In this document: in pieces, positions 2,073 through 14,522 of the stretch
How positions within the stretch are numbered: the stretch's first letter is position 1
How the letters are laid out: every line of letters begins with the position of its first letter
Virus genome (UHGV): UHGV-0155659
Strand: one strand, 5' to 3'
Source of the DNA: a virus
Length of the DNA stretch: 14,522 nucleotides
Notes under the pieces: generated by a model
Told to the model about the DNA's origin: nothing
What the model saw: only the letters and a program-made list of their open reading frames with translations
The model's database searches: none
Made by a program: the position numbers and the translations under genes

Positions 2073-2080
2073 CATGTCAC
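2069..2080. promoter_or_regulatory. 12-bp perfect palindrome GTGACATGTCAC (candidate operator or protein-binding site)
   Basis: Read directly from the sequence. It overlaps the stop codon of the 1734-2072 gene at the start of the 118-bp intergenic region upstream of the terminase operon. Confidence 0.3.
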
Positions 2081-2121
2081 GAGTAGATTATGCATGATGA
2101 ATTTGATGGGTTTTGAATACT

Positions 2122-2147
2122 GCCGCCAACTATGGCGGCTTTATTTT
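2122..2147 (+). terminator. rho-independent terminator upstream of the late operon
   Basis: GC-rich hairpin GCCGCCA / ACTA loop / TGGCGGC followed directly by TTTATTTT. Lies between the regulator-like gene and the small terminase start. Confidence 0.6.
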
Positions 2148-2154
2148 GCATGGT

Positions 2155-2183
2155 ACTATTACCACAACGGTAACTATTACCAC
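2155..2183 (+). repeat. two direct copies of ACTATTACCAC spaced 18 bp apart, just upstream of terS
   Basis: Exact 11-bp direct repeat at 2155-2165 and 2173-2183. It sits between the terminator and the terS start codon and could be a protein-binding site (late activator or terminase recognition). Function is speculative. Confidence 0.3.
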
Positions 2184-2190
2184 GGTGGTT

Positions 2191-2787
2191 ATGATGCCTG
2201 CTGAACCTAAAACCTATAAACGCAAATCAACGCAATTTAAGCCACTAACAGCAATGCAGGAGGCTTATTGCCAGTCATACATCAAAACGCCTGAAAACCA
2301 GACTCAGGCAGCGATTAACGCAGGATTCTCCCCAAATACAGCGGCAGTTAAAGCCAGTGTCATGATGCGCGATGAACGCATTCAAAAACGGATTGCCGAG
2401 CTGATGGAGGAGCGCAACAAACGAATGCGCGTCAGTGCCGATTACGTTCTTATGCGCCTGGTGGAGATCGACCAGATGGATGTGATCGACATCCTCAACG
2501 ACGATGGGAGCCTTAAGCCAATCCGCGAGTGGCCGAAAATCTGGCGCACTACGCTTAGTGGCTTTGATCTGTCATCGACCATCATGAACATGAACGAGGA
2601 TTCGATAGAGACAATCCTCAAAAAAATTAAATGGCCTGACAAGGTGAAGAACCTTGAGCTGATTGGTAAGCATGTTGATGTCAACGCGTTCAAAGAACGT
2701 CTGGATGTTAATGTGAATGTGACAATTGCTGATCGCATAGCAGCAGCCAGGAAGCGACTCAAAGAACGTCAGGATGGTAATCAGTGA
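2191..2787 (+). CDS. terS: terminase small subunit (Terminase_2/HTH type)
   Basis: N-terminal segment TAMQEAYCQSYIKTPENQTQAAINAGFSPNTAAVKASVMMRDERIQKRIAEL is typical of the HTH-containing small terminase family. It sits immediately upstream of the large terminase with overlapping stop/start (GTGA). Start moved to ATG 2191 because the TTG-2113 ORF would include the terminator hairpin. Confidence 0.8.
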   Translation: MMPAEPKTYKRKSTQFKPLTAMQEAYCQSYIKTPENQTQAAINAGFSPNTAAVKASVMMRDERIQKRIAELMEERNKRMRVSADYVLMRLVEIDQMDVIDILNDDGSLKPIREWPKIWRTTLSGFDLSSTIMNMNEDSIETILKKIKWPDKVKNLELIGKHVDVNAFKERLDVNVNVTIADRIAAARKRLKERQDGNQ

Positions 2788-5246
2788 CAGATACAGCGTT
2801 ATCTCCTGAAGAGCAGTTGATCGAGGATATTGCAGGGTTCACTCACGATCCGCTTGGCTATGCCCTCTATGCGTTCCCGTGGGGGGAAGAGGGGACTGAA
2901 CTGGCACATGCCACCGGCCCACGTCAGTGGCAGGCTGATGCGTTCCGAGAGATACGTGATCACCTGCAGAATCCAGAGACGCGCTATCAGCCGCTTATGC
3001 TGGCACGCGCTTCTGGTCACGGTATTGGTAAATCCGCATTCATCTCAATGCTGATCAACTGGGGCATGTCCACTTGCGAGGATTGTAAGGTCGTGGTGAC
3101 CGCCAACACCGACAACCAGCTACGAACGAAGACCTGGCCGGAAATTATCAAGTGGTCGAACCTTGCTATCACGAAAGACTGGTTTGCCTGTACCGCTACC
3201 GCGATGTACAGCAATGATCCTGGGCACGACAAGCGGTGGCGAGCTGACGCAATCCCCTGGTCTGAGCACAACACTGAGGCATTCGCCGGACTACACAACG
3301 AGCGCAAACGCATCATCGTGGTATTCGATGAAGCGTCGAACATTGCGGATCTGGTGTGGGAAGTTGCTGAGGGTGCGCTTACGGACGAAGACACTGAGAT
3401 TATCTGGGTGGCGTTCGGAAACCCTACTCGTAACACCGGGCGTTTCCGCGAATGTTTCCGCAAATATAAACACCGCTGGAAAACTGCGCAGATTGACAGC
3501 CGGACGGTGGAAGGCACTAACAAACAGCAGTTGCAGAAATGGGTTGATGACTACGGGGAAGATAGCGACTTCGTTAAAATCCGTGTGCGCGGCATATTCC
3601 CTGATGCATCTGAATTGCAGTTTATCCCTACCGGTCTTACTGATGAGGCAATGAAACGGGTGGTAACCGCTGCGCAGGTGGCGCATGCTCCGGTGATAAT
3701 CGGTGTTGACCCGGCATATTCAGGCGTTGATGACGCGGTGATATACCTGCGGCAGGGGCTACACAGTAAGGTGCTGTGGACTGGCAACAAGACTACCGAC
3801 GATCTGATTATGGCGAAGCGTATCGCTGACTTTGAAGACCAGTATCAGGCTGACGCAGTGTTCATCGACTTCGGTTACGGAACCGGTTTGAAGTCAATCG
3901 GTGATGGCTGGGGACGTACATGGCAACTTGTTCCGTTCGGCGGTGCGTCCACTGACCCGCAGATGCTCAACAAGCGTGGGGAGATGTTCAACTCATGCAA
4001 GACATGGCTGAGGCTGGGCGGGATGCTGGATGACCAGGAAACAGCGGACGACCTGTCGGCGGCAGAGTATAAAGTTCGAGTGGACGGTAAAATCGTTATC
4101 GAACCGAAGGAAGATATCAAGGAGCGGCTTGGGCGTTCTCCTGGTAAAGGCGATGCGCTACTGCTGACGTTTGCTTTCCCTGTGTCAAAGCGTCTGCGAA
4201 TTCCCGGGTACCCGAACATTGACCGCGATACATCGAAGCTGGATAGCAAGAACAAGCCATTCAAATCGGTTTATTACGAGGTTGGTGGCGATAACGACAA
4301 GTTGTTGCGTGAGTCCGGATTCGATGAGTTTCCAATTATGGCTCCGCGCTGGGAAGTTAACGGCGAAGATGTTTATGGATCATCATGCCCGGGTATGCTG
4401 GCGCTTGGACCTGTTAAGGCATTGCAGCTTCTCCAGAAGCGCAAGTCGCAGTTGATTGATAAAGCCACCAATCCGCCGATGGTTGCTCCTACTTCCCTCA
4501 AGAATCAGCGCGCCTCCCTTCTTCCTGGCGACATCACGTATATCGATCAGATTACTGGTCAGGATGGCTTCAGGCCTGCTTATCTGGTTAACCCCAGTAC
4601 AGCAGATTTGGTGGCAGATATTCAGGACACTCGTCAAATCATTAACAGCGCCTACTTTGTCGATCTGTTCATGATGTTGCAGAACATCAATACCCGCTCG
4701 ATGCCTGTTGAAGCGGTGATCGAAATGAAAGAAGAAAAACTTCTGATGTTGGGGCCGGTTCTGGAGCGTCTGAACGACGAATGTCTTAATCCTCTCATTG
4801 ACCGTGCTTTCTCGATGATGGTGCGTAAAAACATGCTGCCTCCACCGCCAGATGTGATGGAAGGTATGCCACTGAAGGTCGAATACATTTCCGTCATGGC
4901 TCAGGCACGGAAGTCTATCGGCCTGTCCAGTCTGGCGTCTACGGTCAACTTCATTGGTCAACTTGCGCAAGCGAAACCAGAAGCTCTCGACAAACTCAAC
5001 GTTGATCAGGCGATCGATGCATTCGCTGATATGTCCGGAGTGTCTCCAACCGTCATTGTTCCGCAGGAACAGGTTGAGCATGCTCGCCAGCAACGGGCAC
5101 AGCAACAACAGCAGCAACAAATGATGGCGATGGGGATGGCGGCGGCACAGGGTGCCAAGACGCTAAGCGAAGCTAAAACTTCGGATCCGAGTGTTTTGTC
5201 TGCTATGGCGAATGCAGTTAGTGGTCAGGGTGGGCAATCACAATGA
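2784..5246 (+). CDS. large terminase (ATPase + nuclease) fused in frame to a T7 gp8-like portal C-terminal region
   Basis: The N-terminal ~470 aa carry a Walker A (ASGHGIGKS), a Walker B (IIVVFDEAS) and RNaseH-like nuclease motifs (VIIGVDPAYSGVDD; GKGDALLLTFAF), resembling T7 gp19-type TerL. The C-terminal ~350 aa align by eye with the C-terminal two-thirds of the T7 gp8 portal, including the Gln/Met-rich tail QQQQQQQMMAMGMAAAQGA. No stop codon separates the two parts. AGGATGG RBS precedes the GTG start. Confidence 0.8.
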   Translation: MTDTALSPEEQLIEDIAGFTHDPLGYALYAFPWGEEGTELAHATGPRQWQADAFREIRDHLQNPETRYQPLMLARASGHGIGKSAFISMLINWGMSTCEDCKVVVTANTDNQLRTKTWPEIIKWSNLAITKDWFACTATAMYSNDPGHDKRWRADAIPWSEHNTEAFAGLHNERKRIIVVFDEASNIADLVWEVAEGALTDEDTEIIWVAFGNPTRNTGRFRECFRKYKHRWKTAQIDSRTVEGTNKQQLQKWVDDYGEDSDFVKIRVRGIFPDASELQFIPTGLTDEAMKRVVTAAQVAHAPVIIGVDPAYSGVDDAVIYLRQGLHSKVLWTGNKTTDDLIMAKRIADFEDQYQADAVFIDFGYGTGLKSIGDGWGRTWQLVPFGGASTDPQMLNKRGEMFNSCKTWLRLGGMLDDQETADDLSAAEYKVRVDGKIVIEPKEDIKERLGRSPGKGDALLLTFAFPVSKRLRIPGYPNIDRDTSKLDSKNKPFKSVYYEVGGDNDKLLRESGFDEFPIMAPRWEVNGEDVYGSSCPGMLALGPVKALQLLQKRKSQLIDKATNPPMVAPTSLKNQRASLLPGDITYIDQITGQDGFRPAYLVNPSTADLVADIQDTRQIINSAYFVDLFMMLQNINTRSMPVEAVIEMKEEKLLMLGPVLERLNDECLNPLIDRAFSMMVRKNMLPPPPDVMEGMPLKVEYISVMAQARKSIGLSSLASTVNFIGQLAQAKPEALDKLNVDQAIDAFADMSGVSPTVIVPQEQVEHARQQRAQQQQQQQMMAMGMAAAQGAKTLSEAKTSDPSVLSAMANAVSGQGGQSQ

Positions 5247-5539
5247 CAGATTACGAAGACGATCAACTGAAAGAAGAAAACGCCAGTAAGCAACGTGACA
5301 TGGCACAGCGTGAAATTGATGACATTCGCTTTGTCATGAGCAGTGAACAGGGGCGTCGCGTTGTCTGGTCTGTGCTGGAGAAAGGCCGGGTGTTTTCCGC
5401 TATCTCACCGATGGACGCTATGGCAATGGCATTTAATGAGGGGCAACGCAATCTGGCGCTGGAACTGTTTCAGCGCGTTATGGCGCATTGCCCTGAACAG
5501 TATTTGAAGATGGCCAAAGAGGCCAGTGAACAGGAGTGA
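5243..5539 (+). CDS. small acidic protein between portal and scaffold (unknown function, probable head-assembly role)
   Basis: 98-aa ORF coupled on both sides (ATGA overlap at 5243-5246; stop 5537-5539 three bases before the scaffold ATG). No recognisable motif. Confidence 0.55.
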   Translation: MTDYEDDQLKEENASKQRDMAQREIDDIRFVMSSEQGRRVVWSVLEKGRVFSAISPMDAMAMAFNEGQRNLALELFQRVMAHCPEQYLKMAKEASEQE

Positions 5540-5541
5540 TC

Positions 5542-6237
5542 ATGAATTTATTTGAGCGTTTGCTGTATCGCCGTCTTTGCAATGAGCAACCAGTCGATGG
5601 TGGAGCAGCTCCGGCTGCGTCAGAACCGTCAGCGCCTGCAGGTGATACCCCTGCTCCAGTTGGTGATCCATCACAACAGGAAGGTGATAAGCCACAACCT
5701 GTTGCTGATGGCGATAAACCTGCTGATGACAAAAAGCCTGAAAACGATAAGCAGGATGAAAAAAAGGGCGGCGATAAACCAGAGGGTGCGCCTGAGAAGT
5801 ACGAGTTTCAGGCTGCCGAAGGCGTAGATCTGGATACAGAAGCGTTGAAGGAATTCGAGCCGGTGGCGCGAGAACTTAACCTGACCAACGAGCAAGCGCA
5901 AAAGCTGGTTGATGCTTATCCGAAGATTCTGGCAGGTGTTCAGCAGCGCCAGGCAGAAGCCTGGCAGAAAACAACCGAGCAGTGGGCTGCGGATGTAAAA
6001 GCTGACAAAGAAATCGGTGGCGACAAGTTGATTTCTAACCTTAGCGTCGCACAGCGTGCGCTTGACCAGTTCGGGACACCTGAACTCAAAGAATATCTGA
6101 ACACCACCGGGCTGGGTAATCACCCTGATCTGGTCAAAACGTTCGTGAAAATCGGAAAGGCGATGTCTGAAGATGGCATGGTCACCGGTGGTAATGAAGG
6201 CCAGCGTAGTGCGGCCGAAGTGCTCTATGGCAAATAA
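5542..6237 (+). CDS. capsid scaffolding protein (putative)
   Basis: AGGAG RBS at 5532-5536 and ATG at 5542. Has a low-complexity acidic Pro/Ala/Asp/Lys-rich N-terminal half and lies between the portal and the major capsid gene, as the T7 gp9 scaffold does. Call is by position and composition. Confidence 0.6.
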   Translation: MNLFERLLYRRLCNEQPVDGGAAPAASEPSAPAGDTPAPVGDPSQQEGDKPQPVADGDKPADDKKPENDKQDEKKGGDKPEGAPEKYEFQAAEGVDLDTEALKEFEPVARELNLTNEQAQKLVDAYPKILAGVQQRQAEAWQKTTEQWAADVKADKEIGGDKLISNLSVAQRALDQFGTPELKEYLNTTGLGNHPDLVKTFVKIGKAMSEDGMVTGGNEGQRSAAEVLYGK

Positions 6238-6245
6238 GAGAGGAA

Positions 6246-7238
6246 ATGACAATGGCTGTTAAAGGCTTAACTGCGCTAACGCTGGCTGACTGGGGTAAGC
6301 GCGTCGATCCAAACGGGAAAGTCGATAAGATTATCGAGCTTCTCGGTCAAACTAACCCGATCCTTCAGGATATGCCTTTTGTCGAAGGGAACCTTCCTAC
6401 CGGACACCGAACCACCATTCGTTCTGGTTTACCTTCAGCTACCTGGCGTTTGCTGAACTATGGCGTACAGCCAAGCAAATCAACCACAGTGCAGGTAACC
6501 GATTCCGTTGGCATGCTGGAAACCTATGCTGAAGTCGATAAGTCACTGGCTGATCTGAACGGCAACACCGCCGAATTCCGCCTGTCTGAAGACCGCGCAT
6601 TTATTGAAGCGATGAATCAGCAGATGGCGCAGACGCTGTTTTATGGTGATTCCAGCGTTAACCCTCAGCAGTTTATGGGACTGTCCTCCCGCTATTCCAG
6701 CCTGTCTGCGGGTAATGCTCAGAACATCATTGATGCTGGTGGCACGGGTACAGATAACACCTCAATCTGGTTAGTGGTGTGGGGCGAAAACACCGTGCAT
6801 GGCATCTTCCCGAAAGGGCAGAAGGCTGGCATCCAGATGGAAGATAAAGGCCAGGTGACACTGGAAGATGCTAATGGCGGCAAGTACGAAGGCTATCGCA
6901 CCCATTACAAATGGGATAACGGACTTGCTCTGCGTGACTGGCGTTATGTTGTTCGCATTGCAAACATCGATGTCAGCAATCTTTCAGAACCTTCCTCTGC
7001 CGCAAATATTGCGAAGTTGATGGTTAAAGCACTGCATCGAATTCCAAACCGTGGCATGGGTCGCCCGGTGTTCTACATGAACCGCACTGTAGGCCAGGCT
7101 CTTGATCTGCAATCTCTGGAGAAAACATCTCTGGCGATCAGCGTAAAAGAGACAGAAGGCGAGTGGTGGACGTCATTCCGTGGTGTACCAATCCGTGAAA
7201 CTGATGCGCTTCTGGAAACAGAAGCCCGCGTGGTGTAA
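6246..7238 (+). CDS. major capsid protein
   Basis: 330-aa ORF directly after the scaffold gene, followed by a stem-loop. Size and position fit an HK97-fold major capsid protein in a portal-scaffold-capsid arrangement. The start could alternatively be ATG 6252. Confidence 0.75.
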   Translation: MTMAVKGLTALTLADWGKRVDPNGKVDKIIELLGQTNPILQDMPFVEGNLPTGHRTTIRSGLPSATWRLLNYGVQPSKSTTVQVTDSVGMLETYAEVDKSLADLNGNTAEFRLSEDRAFIEAMNQQMAQTLFYGDSSVNPQQFMGLSSRYSSLSAGNAQNIIDAGGTGTDNTSIWLVVWGENTVHGIFPKGQKAGIQMEDKGQVTLEDANGGKYEGYRTHYKWDNGLALRDWRYVVRIANIDVSNLSEPSSAANIAKLMVKALHRIPNRGMGRPVFYMNRTVGQALDLQSLEKTSLAISVKETEGEWWTSFRGVPIRETDALLETEARVV

Positions 7239-7254
7239 CGCCTGTTATTAACCT

Positions 7255-7274
7255 GTGGGTCGTAACAGACCCAC
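7255..7274 (+). other. stem-loop between the major capsid and next gene (possible RNA processing/stability element)
   Basis: 7-bp stem GTGGGTC / GACCCAC with a 6-nt loop, not followed by a U-tract, so not a classical intrinsic terminator. Confidence 0.3.
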
Positions 7275-7289
7275 TAATGGAGAAAGAAG

Positions 7290-7727
7290 ATGATCACCGA
7301 CAAACTGTTGATGTTCTCCGAAGCTCAGGCGGTTACGAATACCGCGGCTTCTACTGACGTAATCGATCTCGGTCCAATTGACGGAAAACGTCGTGATATC
7401 GGCGTGGGTTACCCGCTTGAGTTTTGGGCGCTGGTTAACACAGCCGCCGCAGCAAGCGGTGATGCAACTGTAAACATCCAGTTGCAGACGAGTGAGGATA
7501 ACAGCTCATGGACCACTATTTATGATAGTGGTGCACTGGCAAAGACCGCCCTGACAGCAGGTAAACGAGTTGTTTCTGCAAAGGTGCCTGCCGGTGTTCA
7601 GCGATATCTGCGTGTTAACTACTCCGTCGCAACTGGCCCGCTAACGGCTGGCGAATTCACTGCTGGTATCAGTCTTGATGTTGATGCCAATACGCCGTAT
7701 CCGATCCGCTCAAAAGTAACTGGTTAA
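7290..7727 (+). CDS. small beta-rich head-associated protein, possibly a capsid decoration/cement protein
   Basis: 145-aa ORF with GGAG RBS at 7279-7282. The N-terminus LLMFSEAQAVTNTAASTDVIDLG resembles, from memory, cement/decoration proteins of the Bbp16-like type. Located right after the capsid gene. Assignment tentative. Confidence 0.5.
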   Translation: MITDKLLMFSEAQAVTNTAASTDVIDLGPIDGKRRDIGVGYPLEFWALVNTAAAASGDATVNIQLQTSEDNSSWTTIYDSGALAKTALTAGKRVVSAKVPAGVQRYLRVNYSVATGPLTAGEFTAGISLDVDANTPYPIRSKVTG

Positions 7728-7737
7728 GGTGATATCG

Positions 7738-8073
7738 ATGTCAGGTGAGAAACCAAGATACCGCGTTCTGCGCCTCTCTCATATCCATAACACACTGTGG
7801 CCGGAGGGGGCAGAAATCGAATACGAAGGTGAGCCTGGTAGCGCACTGGAACCTGTTAACGATGCAGCCAGACAGGCAAAAGCAAAAGTTGCAGGAAAGG
7901 TGTCAATGGCAGCAACCAGCACCAAAATCATCAACGATGTGTCAGATGATGGTGAACTGGATAAGCTCCGTGAAGAGTACGAATTGCTCTTTAACGAGAA
8001 GCCACACCATAACGCCAAAGCTGAAACGCTCCGCGAGAAGATCGCAGATAAGCGTAAAGAACTGGGCGTGTAA
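7738..8073 (+). CDS. hypothetical structural-module protein (111 aa)
   Basis: ATG at 7738 preceded by AAGGTGA; the ORF track starts at GTG 7729. Followed by an intrinsic terminator. Function unknown. Confidence 0.6.
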   Translation: MSGEKPRYRVLRLSHIHNTLWPEGAEIEYEGEPGSALEPVNDAARQAKAKVAGKVSMAATSTKIINDVSDDGELDKLREEYELLFNEKPHHNAKAETLREKIADKRKELGV

Positions 8074-8089
8074 GCCTCGCGGATCAGAC

Positions 8090-8111
8090 AAGGGGCTTCG
8101 GCCCCTTTATT
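8090..8111 (+). terminator. rho-independent terminator after the capsid gene cluster
   Basis: Hairpin AGGGGC / TTCG tetraloop / GCCCCT followed by TTATT. Its position after the head genes is analogous to the T7 T-phi terminator after gene 10. Confidence 0.6.
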
Positions 8112-8123
8112 GCAGGAGTGTAT

Positions 8124-8447
8124 ATGGAACTCGTAAACCTCAAAACCGGCACTGACAGCTACCAGGATGAGAGCGGAGAAACCAGAACTCGCGATGAATA
8201 CCCGTGGGGGCTGTGCATCACTCTTAATAACGACACATTGAATAAGCTGAAGGCGCAACCTCAGGGCGTCGGAACAGAAGTGATGATAACTGCAAAGGCT
8301 GTTATTCGAGGCCTGTCTGCCAGAGAAACTGACGATGGTGTTAATCGCAGCGCCGATCTGCAGATCACTGATATGGCGATCGCTCCTGTTTCCGGGGATG
8401 TAGAAAAATCAGCGGCTGAAACCCTGTACGGCAATGGGGGTGAGTAA
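8124..8447 (+). CDS. hypothetical virion-module protein (107 aa)
   Basis: AGGAG RBS at 8114-8118 and ATG at 8124. Stop overlaps the start of the next gene (TAATG). Function unknown. Confidence 0.6.
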   Translation: MELVNLKTGTDSYQDESGETRTRDEYPWGLCITLNNDTLNKLKAQPQGVGTEVMITAKAVIRGLSARETDDGVNRSADLQITDMAIAPVSGDVEKSAAETLYGNGGE

Positions 8448-9052
8448 TGGCCTCTGTAGTAGAGATCTGCAATCGTGCGCTGTCCAATATTGGCAACAGC
8501 CGCAGCATTAACAGCCTGACGGAAGCCAGCAAGGAAGCGGGGGAATGTTCGCTGCACTTTGAGGCCTGCCGTGATGCTGTGCTTTCTGATTTTGACTGGA
8601 ACTTTGCTACCAAACGCGTGGCGCTTGCAAATACGAGCAATCCACCGCCTGACTGGGAATATGCGTATCAGTACCCGTCCGATTGTCTGCGCATTACTGA
8701 AATTATGCTTCCTGGTGTACGCAATCCAACAGCAGCAATGCGCGTTCAGTACGAAGTTGGTGCAGACACCAACGGAACAGGAAAGTTGATCTACACAGAC
8801 CAGCCGCAGGCATGGCTCAAGTATGTCTCTCGCGTTTCAGATGTGAACATGTTTGATGCCATTTTTATGGAGGCGTTGGCCTGGCGTCTTGCGGCAGCTA
8901 TTAACATGGCGCTGACTGGGAATGCAGACCTCGGTACGTTTTCCCTCAATATGTACAATCGCGTGATTCTTAGTGCTGGCTCGCATAGCCAGAATGAATC
9001 ACAGGAACCACAGCCACCGGTTGACGAGTTTACCATTGCGAGGTTGTCCTGA
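8447..9052 (+). CDS. tail tubular protein A-like (T7 gp11-like adaptor)
   Basis: 201 aa, similar in size to T7 gp11, with N-terminal pattern ALSNIG...INSL...W.F and gene order directly before the gp12-like gene. Similarity judged by eye, not by alignment. Confidence 0.65.
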   Translation: MASVVEICNRALSNIGNSRSINSLTEASKEAGECSLHFEACRDAVLSDFDWNFATKRVALANTSNPPPDWEYAYQYPSDCLRITEIMLPGVRNPTAAMRVQYEVGADTNGTGKLIYTDQPQAWLKYVSRVSDVNMFDAIFMEALAWRLAAAINMALTGNADLGTFSLNMYNRVILSAGSHSQNESQEPQPPVDEFTIARLS

Positions 9053-11523
9053 TGGCTATCAGTTGGATCCAGCCCAGTTTTGCCGGTGGTGAGATTGGAC
9101 CGTCGTTGTACGGTCGTATCGACATGGCGAAGTACCAGGTGGCATTGCGCAAGTGCGATAACTTTATCGTGCGGCAGTATGGCGGCGTTGAGAATCGACC
9201 TGGTACGCGTTTTGTCGGTGCCGCCAAATACCCAAATCGGAAATGCCGCCTGATCCCGTTCCAGTTCTCGACGGTTCAGACTTATGCTCTGGAGTTCGGA
9301 CACCAGTACATGCGCGTTATCAAAGATGGTGCGTTGGTGCTGAACAGCAGCAATGTTATTTATGAAATTGCCACGCCATATACTGAAGCCGATCTGTTCC
9401 GAATTAAATTCACGCAAAGCGCAGACGTGCTTACGCTGGTTCATCCGGCATACCCGCCGAAAGAGTTGCGCCGCTATGCGCATGACAACTGGCAACTGGT
9501 TGATGTGGTAACGAAGAACGGGCCATTTGAAGATATCAATATTGACGAGTCAGTGACGGTTTATGCCAGCGCCAGCACCGGGACAATTACGTTAACGGCA
9601 AGCGCCTCTATTTTTGGCGCGGAGCAGGTAGGCAAATTGTTCTATCTGGAACAGCCTGCAGTGGATTCTGTGCCGGTATGGGAAACCAGTAAGAGTACGT
9701 CGATTGGCGATATTCGCCGTGCAGACAGTAACTACTATCGCGCCGTTACAGCAGGCAAAACAGGCACTTTGCGCCCTTCGCATACAGAAGGCACATCATG
9801 GGATGGCTGGGGCGGATCCGGTGATGATGATACCGGCATTGAGTGGGAGTATCTGCACAGTGGTTTTGGCATTGCCCGTATCTCTGCTGCAAATGGAACT
9901 ACTGCAACTGCCGAGGTGATTTCCTATATCCCTTCGCAGGTAGTTGGCGAGGATAATGCCAGCTATAAATGGGCTAAATATGCCTGGAACAGTATTAACG
10001 GTTATCCTGGCACTGTTGTTTATTATCAACAACGTCTTTACTTCGCCGCATCGACTGCGTTCCCTCAGACTATCTGGGCCAGCCGTACTGGGGATTATAA
10101 GGATTTTGGCAAAAGCAATCCTACGCAGGATGACGACAGAATTATCTACACCTATGCCGGGCGTCAGGTTAATGAGATCCGCCACCTGATTGATGTTGGT
10201 TCGCTGGTGGCGCTGACTTCTGGAGGTGAGTACGTCATCACCGGCGACCAGAACAAAGTATTAACCCCATCATCATTTGCATTCAGCTCTCAGGGATCAA
10301 ATGGCTCGAGCAATGTCCCACCAATTGCCGTGGCGAATATTGCTCTGTTCGTCCAGGAGAAAGGCAGTGTTGTCCGTGATCTGGCCTACTCATTCGATGT
10401 TGACGGCTATCAGGGGAACGACCTGACCATCCTTGCCAATCATCTTTTTCAGAAGCACAGCATTGTTGACTGGTGCTTCTCTATTGTCCCTTACTCCAGC
10501 GCCTTCTGCATTCGTGATGACGGTAAATTACTGGTGATGACCTATTTGCGTGATCAGCAGGTTTTTGCATGGGCACCACAATCCAGTACCGGAAAATATG
10601 AAAGCACATGCAGTATCAGCGAAGGCAATGAAGATGCGGTGTATTTCGTCGTTAACCGAACCGTTAACGGGCAAACAGTGAGATACATCGAGCGGCTGTC
10701 CAGCCGTTTATTTACCAGCGATGAAGATGCTTTCTTTGTTGATTCTGGCCTTAGCTATGATGGAAGAAATACGTCTGACAGAACGATGACCATCACTGGT
10801 GGTTCTGGCGAATGGGATTATCGCGCGGAATATACAATCAGTGTTTCTGGTGGTGCGTACTTCACCAGTAGTGATGTCGGCGCGCAACTACAGTTCCCTT
10901 ATGCCGGAACTGATCCTGATACTGGCGATGAAGTGTCAAAAGAATTACGTTGCGACATTATTTCTGTAACCAGCAATACCGCTGTAGTGGTTCGTGCCAA
11001 CAGGAACGTCCCGCCATCCCTCAGGAATGCGGCCACCACGAACTGGCAGATGGCGCGCCGGACATTTGGAGGCCTGTCTCATCTTGAAGGCCAGACCGTA
11101 AACATTCTCTCTGATGCGAACGTGGAACCACAGAAAGTGGTTTCCGGAGGTGCCGTCACACTGGAATCTCCGGGGGCTGTAGTGCACATCGGCCTGCCAA
11201 TAACTGCTGAATTCGAAACACTGGATATCAACATTAACGGACAGGAAACGCTGCTGGACAAAAAACAGGTGATACCCTCCGTTACTCTGGTTGTGAATGC
11301 CAGTCGCGGCATCTGGGCGACTACGCCCGGCGGTAAATGGTACGAATATCCACAGCGTGAATTCGAGTTCTACGATGATCCTGTTGATGATGCTACCGGA
11401 AAAGTAGAAGTGAAACTGGACAGTAACTGGGGCAAAAACGGACGTGTAAAAATCCGTCAGCTTGACCCGTTGCCGCTGTCTGTTCTTGCCGTTATTCCTC
11501 GCCTTACTGTTGGGGGATTCTGA
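9052..11523 (+). CDS. tail tubular protein B-like (T7 gp12-like nozzle)
   Basis: 823 aa, close to the size of T7 gp12. N-terminal SFAGGEIGPSLYGRIDMAKYQ...VENRPGTRFV resembles the gp12 N-terminus NLKGGISQQPDILRYPDQ...LQKRPPLVFL. Flanked by gp11-like and gp13/gp14-like genes. Confidence 0.7.
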   Translation: MAISWIQPSFAGGEIGPSLYGRIDMAKYQVALRKCDNFIVRQYGGVENRPGTRFVGAAKYPNRKCRLIPFQFSTVQTYALEFGHQYMRVIKDGALVLNSSNVIYEIATPYTEADLFRIKFTQSADVLTLVHPAYPPKELRRYAHDNWQLVDVVTKNGPFEDINIDESVTVYASASTGTITLTASASIFGAEQVGKLFYLEQPAVDSVPVWETSKSTSIGDIRRADSNYYRAVTAGKTGTLRPSHTEGTSWDGWGGSGDDDTGIEWEYLHSGFGIARISAANGTTATAEVISYIPSQVVGEDNASYKWAKYAWNSINGYPGTVVYYQQRLYFAASTAFPQTIWASRTGDYKDFGKSNPTQDDDRIIYTYAGRQVNEIRHLIDVGSLVALTSGGEYVITGDQNKVLTPSSFAFSSQGSNGSSNVPPIAVANIALFVQEKGSVVRDLAYSFDVDGYQGNDLTILANHLFQKHSIVDWCFSIVPYSSAFCIRDDGKLLVMTYLRDQQVFAWAPQSSTGKYESTCSISEGNEDAVYFVVNRTVNGQTVRYIERLSSRLFTSDEDAFFVDSGLSYDGRNTSDRTMTITGGSGEWDYRAEYTISVSGGAYFTSSDVGAQLQFPYAGTDPDTGDEVSKELRCDIISVTSNTAVVVRANRNVPPSLRNAATTNWQMARRTFGGLSHLEGQTVNILSDANVEPQKVVSGGAVTLESPGAVVHIGLPITAEFETLDININGQETLLDKKQVIPSVTLVVNASRGIWATTPGGKWYEYPQREFEFYDDPVDDATGKVEVKLDSNWGKNGRVKIRQLDPLPLSVLAVIPRLTVGGF

Positions 11524-11987
11524 TGATCGATGTTCGAATTATTCCCGCTACCGAAGAGCATCTTCAGATGATTTTGCCGGATGTTCGTCAGGCTGATATT
11601 GACGAACTGTATGCGGTATCGCTGATGACTACCGAAGATGCGCTGCGTGTTGGTCTGCGCACTGCGACTATGGCCTGGTCAGGATTTGCGAACGGAGAAC
11701 TGGTAACCATGTTTGGCGTATCTCCGGCGTCAATGATCGGTGGCAATGGTACGCCCTGGCTGGTCGGAACCAGCCGTATCGAAAAATATCAGAAGACATT
11801 TCTTCGCCACTGCCGCCCTGTATTGCAGCAGATGCTGGCAGTTTATCCGCGCCTGGAAAACTATGTCGACGAGCGAAACCATGTTGCCAAAGCATGGCTG
11901 CACTGGCTTGGATTCAGGCTTGAAGAAGCCGCGCCTTATGGTGCTCTTGGTCTTAATTTCCACAGATTTCACATGGAGAGAAAATAA
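11523..11987 (+). CDS. internal virion protein A-like (gp13-like) small protein
   Basis: 154-aa ORF coupled on both sides (TGATG at 11521-11525; TAATG at 11985-11989). Assignment is by synteny between the gp12-like and gp14-like genes. Confidence 0.55.
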   Translation: MIDVRIIPATEEHLQMILPDVRQADIDELYAVSLMTTEDALRVGLRTATMAWSGFANGELVTMFGVSPASMIGGNGTPWLVGTSRIEKYQKTFLRHCRPVLQQMLAVYPRLENYVDERNHVAKAWLHWLGFRLEEAAPYGALGLNFHRFHMERK

Positions 11988-12532
11988 TGTGCGATCCGGT
12001 TATTGCTGGTGGCGCAATGCTCGCCATGAGTGGCATTCAGGCATACACCCAGTACCAACAGGGAAAGTATGCCTCGAAGGTTGCAGAAGCGAACGCAGAT
12101 ATAGCCACAGCTCAGGCAAATGATGCAATAAACAGAGGTAACGCTGAAGCTGAGCAACGGCGCAGAGAGACCCGACAGCGGCTTGGTACACAGGCGGCGA
12201 CAATGGGGGCTACCGGCGCTGATTTATCTACAGGTAACGCGCTGGATATATTTGGCGACACTGCCCAGTTTGGCGCTCTTGATTCTCTGACGACGGTGAA
12301 TAACGCGCAACGCGAGGCTTACGGTTATCAGGTTCAGGCTGCCAACTATAAAGCAGAAGCCAGTTCAGCCCGTAAACAGGGGAATGTGGGAGCAGCAACA
12401 ACATTGCTCACTGCGCCTCTGAAGGCATACGGTGCGTACCAGATGTTTGGTGGGACGTGGAGTCCGTTTACTCAAAGCACCCCTGCGCCAATCTGGGCAG
12501 CAGCAGGAACCAGATTACCCGGAGGATTATAA
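11987..12532 (+). CDS. internal virion protein B-like (T7 gp14-like)
   Basis: 181 aa beginning MCDPVIAGGAMLAMSGIQA, compared with T7 gp14 MCWAAAIPIAISGAQA as I recall it. Ala/Gln-rich composition and synteny support the call. Confidence 0.65.
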   Translation: MCDPVIAGGAMLAMSGIQAYTQYQQGKYASKVAEANADIATAQANDAINRGNAEAEQRRRETRQRLGTQAATMGATGADLSTGNALDIFGDTAQFGALDSLTTVNNAQREAYGYQVQAANYKAEASSARKQGNVGAATTLLTAPLKAYGAYQMFGGTWSPFTQSTPAPIWAAAGTRLPGGL

Positions 12533-14522
12533 TGCCAGTCGTACCAACAGTATCCGGCCGTCAGGTTCAGAGCCGTGGAGTTCAGTCAGCAGGCTTGCAG
12601 ACGTTTTCTCAGCCAGGTATTGGTGATGCTTTTGTTCGGGCAGGGACAGAGGCAATTGATGTTTTTGGTCAGGCAAAACAGCGTGCCAATATCGCTCTGG
12701 CTCAGGAGGCATCTCTTAACCTCAGTCAGATAAGCAGTGATCTGCTGAATAATCCTGAAACAGGATTGCTTAACCTGAAAGGGAAAAATGCTATTGGAAA
12801 AGGTCAGGAGTATACGCAGCAGTTTGATGCTCAGGCCGAACAACTGGCTATGTCGCTGCCGGATGAACAGGCTCGTAATGCTTTCATGCAGCAGGCGCAG
12901 CAGCAGCGCATTCAGTTCACTACGCAGGCAGGGCGGCACGAGATAGGGCAAATAAATGCCTACGAAGAAGGCCAGTTTCAGGCTACGCTGCTGAACAATG
13001 GTAAAAATGCCGCAGCATTGTATGGCGACAACGCCGCATATGTATTGGCTAATAAGCAAACTTTCCAGCAAATTGAGGATTACGGCATTGCACATGGCTG
13101 GAGTGACGAGCAAATCCAGGCCAAGAAAATCGAGTTTAAAGAGAAGGTTGCTGATGCCGCATTGTCCCAGTGGTCGGCAAACAATGCGACCGCATTCATC
13201 CAAAGTAATGGCGAGTTAAGTGATACTGCTGCTGGAGCTCGCCGTGCTGTAGCAGATAGTGACTCTTCCGAGCGTGCCCGTGGCATACGCAACAATAACC
13301 CAGGAAATCTCGAATACAGCAAAACTAATCCGTGGGTAGGCCAGACCGGTGATGATGGTCGATTTGCTAAATTCGAAACACCTGAACACGGGATTCGTGC
13401 ATTAGGGCGAAACCTGATGTCGTATCAGAGGCAGGGTATTGATACCGTCAGCGAGATAATTAATCGCTGGGCACCGCCTACTGATAAAAATGATACTATG
13501 TCGTATATCAAAGCAGTGTGCGAACAACTTGGCGTTTCTGCTGATGATCCTCTCGATGCATCTAATCCTGATACCCTGAAGGCGCTTTGTGCAGCCATTA
13601 TCCATCATGAGAACGGTAGCCAGCCATACAGTGATCAGCAGTTAACTGCTGGTGTCAGTGCAGCACTTGGTTTATCAACAATTCCAACCAACACCAAACG
13701 CTATACCGGTAATGCAGCATTCGATGCGGCATCTCCTGAGGCGCAGGCAAGTTTTATGCGACAGGCGGATCAACTGCGTCGGCAGCAGCAGGCTGAATAT
13801 AAAACGATGATTGACAGCCAGGTTCGCGATGCGACAGCTGCATATATGCGTGGCGTTGAATTTCCTAACCCACCTGGTGAGGATGATTTTATTGCAGCTT
13901 ATGGAGTCAGAGAAGGAAACCTGCGATATACCGAGTTTAAGAATACGCAGATCGCCGGACAGTATATAGGCTCTTTCCGCAACATGCCGACAAGCAGCAT
14001 TACAGCATATGTTGAGCAATTACGCCCGGATACTGGTGATACAGGGGAGGGCTATGCGGCACGCGCAGCTCTTTATGACAACGTTGTTTCGGCTGCAAAT
14101 CAGGTGATAAAGCAGCGGCAGTCGGATCCTGTGCAGTTCTCTCTTGCCTCCGGACAGGCAAAGCCTATCGACATGAGCAATAAGGATAACTTTGGACAGA
14201 GCGTTGCCTTGCGTGCCGCTCAGGTCAGTGACCTTGCTAAGTCATATGGCACTCCACTGACGTTCTTTTCCAAAGACGAGGCCAATCAGATCGGTGTTTT
14301 CTTTCGTGATGCTCCAGTTTCCCAACAGGCAGCATATCTCGATACCATCAGGCAGAGCACTGGTGGTGGGCAGGTGTATATGTCAGCACTACAGCAGATC
14401 AGTACCAACGCTCCATCTGCTGCCGTTGCAAAAACCTACCTGAATATCAGTGTGAAACAGAACGCTGCTGCACTGACACAGGCTAAGAACGTTACAATCA
14501 CCGCATTCGACGGACCGAACCC
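12532..14522 (+). CDS. large internal virion/ejection protein (gp15/gp16-like), 3'-truncated by the window end
   Basis: Open frame from ATG 12532 (GGAGGA RBS at 12521-12526, TAATG overlap) to the window edge, giving more than 663 codons with no stop. Gln/Ala-rich with a conserved-looking block RGIRNNNPGNLEY...GIDTVSEIINRWAP. Absent from the ORF track because it has no stop in the window. Confidence 0.75.
   Translation, partial: MPVVPTVSGRQVQSRGVQSAGLQTFSQPGIGDAFVRAGTEAIDVFGQAKQRANIALAQEASLNLSQISSDLLNNPETGLLNLKGKNAIGKGQEYTQQFDAQAEQLAMSLPDEQARNAFMQQAQQQRIQFTTQAGRHEIGQINAYEEGQFQATLLNNGKNAAALYGDNAAYVLANKQTFQQIEDYGIAHGWSDEQIQAKKIEFKEKVADAALSQWSANNATAFIQSNGELSDTAAGARRAVADSDSSERARGIRNNNPGNLEYSKTNPWVGQTGDDGRFAKFETPEHGIRALGRNLMSYQRQGIDTVSEIINRWAPPTDKNDTMSYIKAVCEQLGVSADDPLDASNPDTLKALCAAIIHHENGSQPYSDQQLTAGVSAALGLSTIPTNTKRYTGNAAFDAASPEAQASFMRQADQLRRQQQAEYKTMIDSQVRDATAAYMRGVEFPNPPGEDDFIAAYGVREGNLRYTEFKNTQIAGQYIGSFRNMPTSSITAYVEQLRPDTGDTGEGYAARAALYDNVVSAANQVIKQRQSDPVQFSLASGQAKPIDMSNKDNFGQSVALRAAQVSDLAKSYGTPLTFFSKDEANQIGVFFRDAPVSQQAAYLDTIRQSTGGGQVYMSALQQISTNAPSAAVAKTYLNISVKQNAAALTQAKNVTITAFDGPN

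Follow-up and report, generated by a model that had tools for sequence, protein, structure and literature searches.

A terminase-portal fusion ORF in a phiV10-like phage sequence most likely arose by a private in-frame deletion

The phiV10-like (Uetakevirus) phages and prophages of E. coli carry the large terminase subunit (TerL) and the portal protein on separate genes, which in phiV10 itself are PhiV10p02 (491 aa) and PhiV10p07 (559 aa). The intact relatives of the sequence described here share a common order in this region: the small terminase subunit (TerS), TerL (491 aa), then a Gp49-family gene, a tRNA-Arg and small hypothetical genes, a 68-aa gene and, finally, the portal gene (559 aa). 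A terminator lies after the 3' end of the TerL gene; what follows it is a cassette that varies from strain to strain, and beyond that cassette lie the conserved 68-aa gene and the 5' end of the portal gene.

The TerL C-termini of T3/T7 gp19 and of lambda gpA bind the prohead or the portal. In the TerL family considered here a C-terminal [DE]Y[DN]P[YWF] motif is found in 105 of 110 homologues, and the linker that precedes the motif is hypervariable. Read as a sequence pattern, a conserved motif following a hypervariable linker is typical of short, functional docking motifs, and the DYDPYA tail of this TerL family may be one. The intact portal, for its part, gives an end-to-end alignment, covering residues 3-549, with the solved portal of PDB 8CK0 (a literature text search for that entry returned irrelevant papers only), and it also aligns with T7 gp8. 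T7 gp8 has its N-terminus and most of its wing helices ahead of the stem helix alpha7 (D275/D278), after which come the clip (307-313), the valve helix alpha10 (G386/G387), a hinge at G434 and the crown (PMC6702177).

The stretch of DNA analysed here (the window) is the 14,522-nucleotide UHGV virus genome UHGV-0155659. Its DNA is 97-98% identical to that of phiV10 (NC_007804), phiv142-3 and TL-2011b; epsilon15 is more distant, at ~84% identity to the window. A relative covering at least 80% of the window is present in 288 complete E. coli genomes. The likeness to phiV10 extends over ~12 kb of gap-free collinear sequence with an identical order of genes, in two blocks: window positions 2073-4208 correspond to phiV10 1-2136, and positions 4209-13989 correspond to phiV10 4220-14000 (98.1% identity). 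By nucleotide similarity and by collinearity of gene order with the type members, the window belongs to Uetakevirus (phiV10/epsilon15-like).

Where phiV10 has two genes, the window has one ORF. Upstream of it, on the + strand at 2113..2787, is a small terminase subunit gene that looks intact (Pfam PF03592, Terminase_2, E 1.4e-29) and occupies the position of phiV10p01; its stop codon overlaps the GTG start of the next ORF. That ORF runs from 2784 to 5246 (+ strand) and encodes 820 amino acids, with no stop between a TerL part and a portal part. An initial annotation, made from the letters of the sequence alone, had already described it as a single ORF joining these two functions, and the ORF list and the translation agree. 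The motifs singled out in that description are all found in the translated protein: ASGHGIGKS at residues 75-83, IIVVFDEAS at 177-185, VIIGVDPAYSGVDD at 304-317 and GDALLLTFAF at 456-465. The ATPase and nuclease motifs can be read directly as GHGIGKS (77-83), IIVVFDE (177-183) and VIIGVDPA (304-311).

The translation, the Pfam and PHROG profile matches and comparison with the phiV10 proteins together define the ORF as TerL residues 1-475 followed, without a stop, by portal residues 215-559, the latter being the C-terminal ~60% of that protein. The TerL-derived segment (fusion residues 1-475, window 2784..4208, + strand) matches PHROG 2 (terminase large subunit; E 2.7e-53) and PHROG 5902, and 473 of 478 aligned residues are identical to phiV10 TerL. 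This part drew no match in Pfam, NCBIfam or a PDB sequence search, so its identification comes from the PHROGs and from close relatives; with 99% identity to phiV10 TerL over residues 1-475, the TerL assignment made at the outset stands. The portal-derived segment (fusion residues 476-820, window 4209..5246, + strand) is identical to the phiV10 portal at 340 of 345 residues. Pfam PF12236 (Head-tail_con, the T7 gp8-type portal) matches fusion residues 476-757 with 337.9 bits (E 1e-100), well above the profile's gathering threshold of 27 bits. The coverage is partial, reaching from profile position 210 to position 488 of 489 and leaving positions 1-209 unmatched, so that the fusion does not hold a full-length PF12236 domain with its N-terminal wing region. 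PHROG 332 (portal/connector) tells the same story, matching residues 476-812 over profile positions 223-560 of 560. These two matches also answer the question whether the C-terminal part might be an ordinary TerL extension: it is portal.

The junction between the two segments falls at 4208..4209, as placed by the BLAST endpoints against phiV10 and phiv142-3 and by the flanking sequences. At this single breakpoint the window lacks 2083 bp relative to phiV10 and 1734 bp relative to phiv142-3, the breakpoint being identical in the two comparisons. What is absent corresponds to phiV10 2137-4219, that is, TerL codons 476-491, the terminator, p03/p04/p06 and portal codons 1-214. TerL residues 1-475 (of 491) are thereby joined directly, and in frame, to portal residues 215-559 (of 559), each half being 99% identical to its phiV10 counterpart. 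The sequence at the joint reads ...GCGAATTCCCGGG|TACCCGAACATT... (also given as ...GCGAATTCCCGGG|TACCCGAAC...). There is no microhomology at the junction (0 bp), and no word of at least 8 nt is shared within 100 bp of either breakpoint; microhomology-mediated deletion and repeat-mediated mis-assembly have both been rejected on these grounds. Some BLAST matches run 9 nt beyond the junction, reflecting a chance similarity of 6 nt in 9 between CAGCAGAAC and TACCCGAAC.

Alignment to intact relatives thus supports the reading preferred in the initial annotation, an in-frame deletion that brought TerL and portal together, and revises its particulars. The portal does retain, as had been judged by eye, roughly the C-terminal two-thirds of a gp8-type protein, starting at the residue that aligns with T7 gp8 Y214. 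The N-terminal loss, put at ~200 aa, is real and amounts to 214 aa. The ~50 aa thought to be missing from TerL shrink to 16, 475 of 491 residues having been kept. Beyond what had been described, the deletion also took the whole inter-gene region, with its variable tRNA-Arg and morons and the conserved 68-aa gene. A tRNA scan of the window found none.

Small as it is, the loss on the TerL side removes a conserved element. The 16 residues (QQNQQGKAITDYDPYA in phiV10) include the near-invariant C-terminal DYDPYA motif, and the fusion accordingly has neither the complete TerL length nor the [DE]Y[DN]P[YWF] terminus. On the portal side, the 345 retained residues run from the equivalent of gp8 Y214 to the end of the protein, and the 214 that are lost (~38% of the portal) align to gp8 1-213. 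Kept are part of the wing, the stem, the clip, the valve/tunnel helix and the crown. The resemblance to T7 gp8 includes G386 (the valve-helix kink) and G434 (the wing/crown hinge), both conserved in the fusion, and a Q/M-rich tail; the difference is that the fusion has no equivalent of gp8 1-213, the N-terminal wing region, which the intact relatives do have. Because that region is gone, a normal dodecameric portal vertex would be unlikely to form from the chimera.

Downstream of the fusion ORF the structural module (5243..14522, + strand) keeps its collinearity with phiV10 and appears intact, to judge by its Pfam matches and by ORF lengths that equal those of the phiV10 genes. Its products are a Bbp19-like protein, a protease, a GP7 major capsid protein, a Bbp16 cement protein, a gp10-like staple, and tail and internal virion proteins. 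The stop/start overlap at 5243-5246, indicating translational coupling to the next gene, has been kept after the fusion ORF.

Long ORFs around TerL have been seen before in this phage group. TerLs of the same family that bear an intein are likewise encoded by ORFs of about 810-820 codons (812-814 aa) and are 97% identical to the TerL part of the window's ORF. Their extra length, in contrast, is a LAGLIDADG intein (PF14528) lying inside Walker A, between K82 and S83, and their C-terminus is complete; the window's ORF has portal sequence instead. The K-S position in the P-loop is a typical intein insertion site. An intein as the cause of the long ORF in the window has been rejected, there being no LAGLIDADG or intein match in the window. 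Comparable to the fusion in the window is another singleton chimera of the group, P0099, in which a lambda-P-like replication protein is joined to TerL residues 106-491. Together, P0099 and the intein-bearing TerLs indicate that unusually long ORFs around TerL have mundane origins.

Is the terminase-portal ORF a member of a family or a one-off? No contiguous junction exists among 5,426 complete E. coli genomes, 521 of which carry both flanks apart, and the exact junction has no match in genome, viral and JGI metagenome contig collections. Among ~5.8 billion protein clusters searched, coverage of the fusion never exceeds 60%; the best matches are 491-aa TerLs that cover 58% of it. The exact 820-aa protein is encoded on only two ENA metagenome contigs. 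It falls in a cluster of 2726 members, and the 14 other members among those listed are 489-491 aa long. A literature phrase search for terminase-portal fusions produced no relevant title among the matches listed, and a search on the identifiers of the sample brought up no paper. The initial annotation had allowed for close homologues sharing both the one-ORF layout and a conserved junction; these were looked for in genomes, contigs and proteins, and were not found. A natural fusion family has been rejected on the outcome of the whole-fusion protein search, the exact-protein look-up and the junction scans of the E. coli genomes and the three contig collections, all of which came up empty. The deletion event is unique to this source.

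Uniqueness of this kind invites suspicion, and the suspicion to be taken most seriously is that a chimeric read or a mis-join in the sequencing library or assembly has linked two genes, TerL and portal, that stand apart in the true genome of an intact phage. The window is a contig from a short-read metagenome at low coverage (cov 5.52, ~5.5x k-mer coverage), its junction is found nowhere else, and the TerL-portal interval is strain-variable, a kind of region at which assemblies often break. A de Bruijn mis-join, however, requires a shared k-mer, and here the absence of microhomology and of any shared word of 8 or more nt near the breakpoints leaves none to be used; the contig contains no Ns or scaffolding gaps; and a lone chimeric read would normally lose to a true path at 5x. 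The two junction-bearing contigs, ERZ773516:NODE_1304_length_14522_cov_5.524264 and ERZ28665303:WENC17-2_SAMN06111986_METAG-scaffold_937 (15,472 bp), of which the first is the window itself, are 100% identical over 14,500 shared bases, junction included, and differ at their ends, although the two assemblies may have been made from the same reads. A SPAdes-style NODE contig and a 'scaffold_937' that differ in ends and in naming nevertheless agree across the junction, possibly on common input data. The lack of a shared k-mer, the lack of Ns and the agreement of two assemblies therefore favour a real deletion that was present in the reads. A small share of probability is kept for the chimeric-read artefact because coverage is low and the assemblies may share their input.

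A laboratory origin is suggested, at first sight, by the junction itself, in which GAATTC, CCCGGG and GGTACC, the sites of EcoRI, SmaI and KpnI, overlap: GAATTCCCGGGTACC looks like a polylinker, and within it lies a 10-bp palindrome, CGGGTACCCG. Yet none of its bases is foreign. In TerL, phiV10 and phiv142-3 both have GAATTCCCGGG (118UI has one base different on this side, GAATTCCTGGG), and TACCCGAAC is native portal sequence in phiV10, phiv142-3 and 118UI. Since each half of the junction is native phage sequence, the resemblance to a string of restriction sites is coincidental, and a polylinker or engineered junction has been rejected. The breakpoints, moreover, do not coincide with the SmaI and KpnI cut positions, and GGTACC does not occur on the native portal side; no vector sequence was seen elsewhere on the contig, which is phage-collinear throughout the window; and the contig was assembled from an environmental or host-associated metagenome. 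We give an engineered deletion construct next to no credence. The initial annotation's phrase, a defective or engineered element, accordingly survives in its first half: a deletion in a defective element is supported, and an engineered origin is not, given a metagenome assembly with native phage sequence on both sides of the junction. Only slightly better placed, and still very improbable, is the proposal that the fusion is natural and selected, either as a motor tethered to its portal or as a decoy with a dominant-negative effect, poisoning the portal or terminase assembly of relatives that superinfect. The preserved reading frame, the retained translational coupling downstream (the 5243-5246 overlap) and the presence of ATPase and nuclease motifs together with portal stem, clip and crown speak in its favour. 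Frame preservation, however, is an event of 1-in-3 chance; searches of the ~5.8 billion protein clusters and of the DNA collections gave no second example; both partners have lost conserved parts (the C-terminal motif of TerL and the N-terminal 214 aa of the portal); and two halves that are 99% identical to the separate genes of relatives bear no sign of evolution after fusion. In its more specific form, the chimera would be expressed and retained as a dominant-negative subunit that co-assembles with, or titrates, the TerS, TerL or portal of superinfecting phiV10-like phages; were it true, a cryptic prophage would gain a superinfection-exclusion function. We rate it lower still than selection of the fusion in general.

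The reading that we prefer, with a probability of roughly 0.88, is that a private, recent in-frame deletion in a phiV10/epsilon15-like E. coli phage genome fused TerL and portal, and that the genome is most likely that of an ordinary defective phage or prophage. A single deletion by illegitimate recombination would have removed everything from TerL codon 476 through portal codon 214, some 1.7-2.1 kb depending on which variable cassette the ancestor carried between the two genes, and the ends would have been joined in frame by a 1-in-3 chance. With the frame kept, translation would begin at the TerL start, end at the portal stop and yield the 820-aa chimera, a TerL stripped of its conserved DYDPYA tail and burdened with 345 foreign residues. 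The element would be unable to make infectious particles on its own, having no complete portal; the 68-aa gene has gone as well. Domain content and conservation both point that way: most likely no infectious particles would be made without a helper. It may be maintained as a cryptic prophage or, with a helper, as a defective genome, a status that is read from the ~15 kb by which the element is known. The deletion is probably recent, because the other structural genes are collinear, full length and undamaged.

Cryptic and defective E. coli prophages with internal deletions offer the obvious comparison, since they display the same one-off joining of two unrelated ORFs. The window differs from them in that its deletion is small and in frame and that the rest of its visible structural module is undamaged. 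The window derives by deletion from a well-known group of phages and does not represent a new architecture of packaging genes. Its biological import is minor: it is one more case of a prophage in decay, or of a metagenome holding a defective phage genome. It does carry a caution for annotation: before a long 'fusion' ORF in a packaging module is taken for a new architecture, it should be set against intact relatives. That same comparison brought to the surface the conserved DYDPYA tail of this TerL family, a possible docking motif that is worth testing.

Where the TerL and portal parts of the fusion ORF meet, the junction creates the sequence GAATTCCCGGGTACC (window 4197-4214), in which EcoRI, SmaI/XmaI and KpnI sites overlap, and with it a perfect 10-bp palindrome, CGGGTACCCG. 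Since both halves of this sequence are native in intact relatives, the restriction-site cluster and the palindrome look coincidental.

Many of the close relatives of the TerL part (2784-4208) retrieved with the fusion protein (P0004-P0024) are 812-814 aa long and 97% identical to it. These longer proteins carry a LAGLIDADG (PF14528) intein of ~322 aa within Walker A, with the boundaries GHGIGK|ALRPDD...VTHN|SAF; the window's TerL part, in contrast, has no intein. The same search yielded one more deletion-type chimera from the same phage group, P0099, a Logan singleton of 619 aa that joins the N-terminus of a lambda-P-like replication protein (PF06992) to TerL aa 106-491.

Upstream of the terminase genes, 1-2072 is a mosaic of small early or accessory genes (Ead/Ea22-like, DUF551, DUF4222 and unknowns) with piecemeal matches to different relatives; it aligns with phiv142-3 in short stretches only, and no alignment with the compared phiV10 stretch was found. 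Downstream, a putative protease (233 aa, 5536-6237) and a tail protein (823 aa, 9052-11523) are conserved in the phiV10/epsilon15 group, and neither has a Pfam match at E <= 0.001.

The TerL family to which the window's protein belongs ends, after a hypervariable linker, in the near-invariant motif [DE]Y[DN]P[YWF]A (105 of 110 homologues). The deletion at 4208|4209 has removed this motif, which in phiV10 falls within 2137-2184. The conserved TerL tail is a candidate docking peptide for the portal or prohead.
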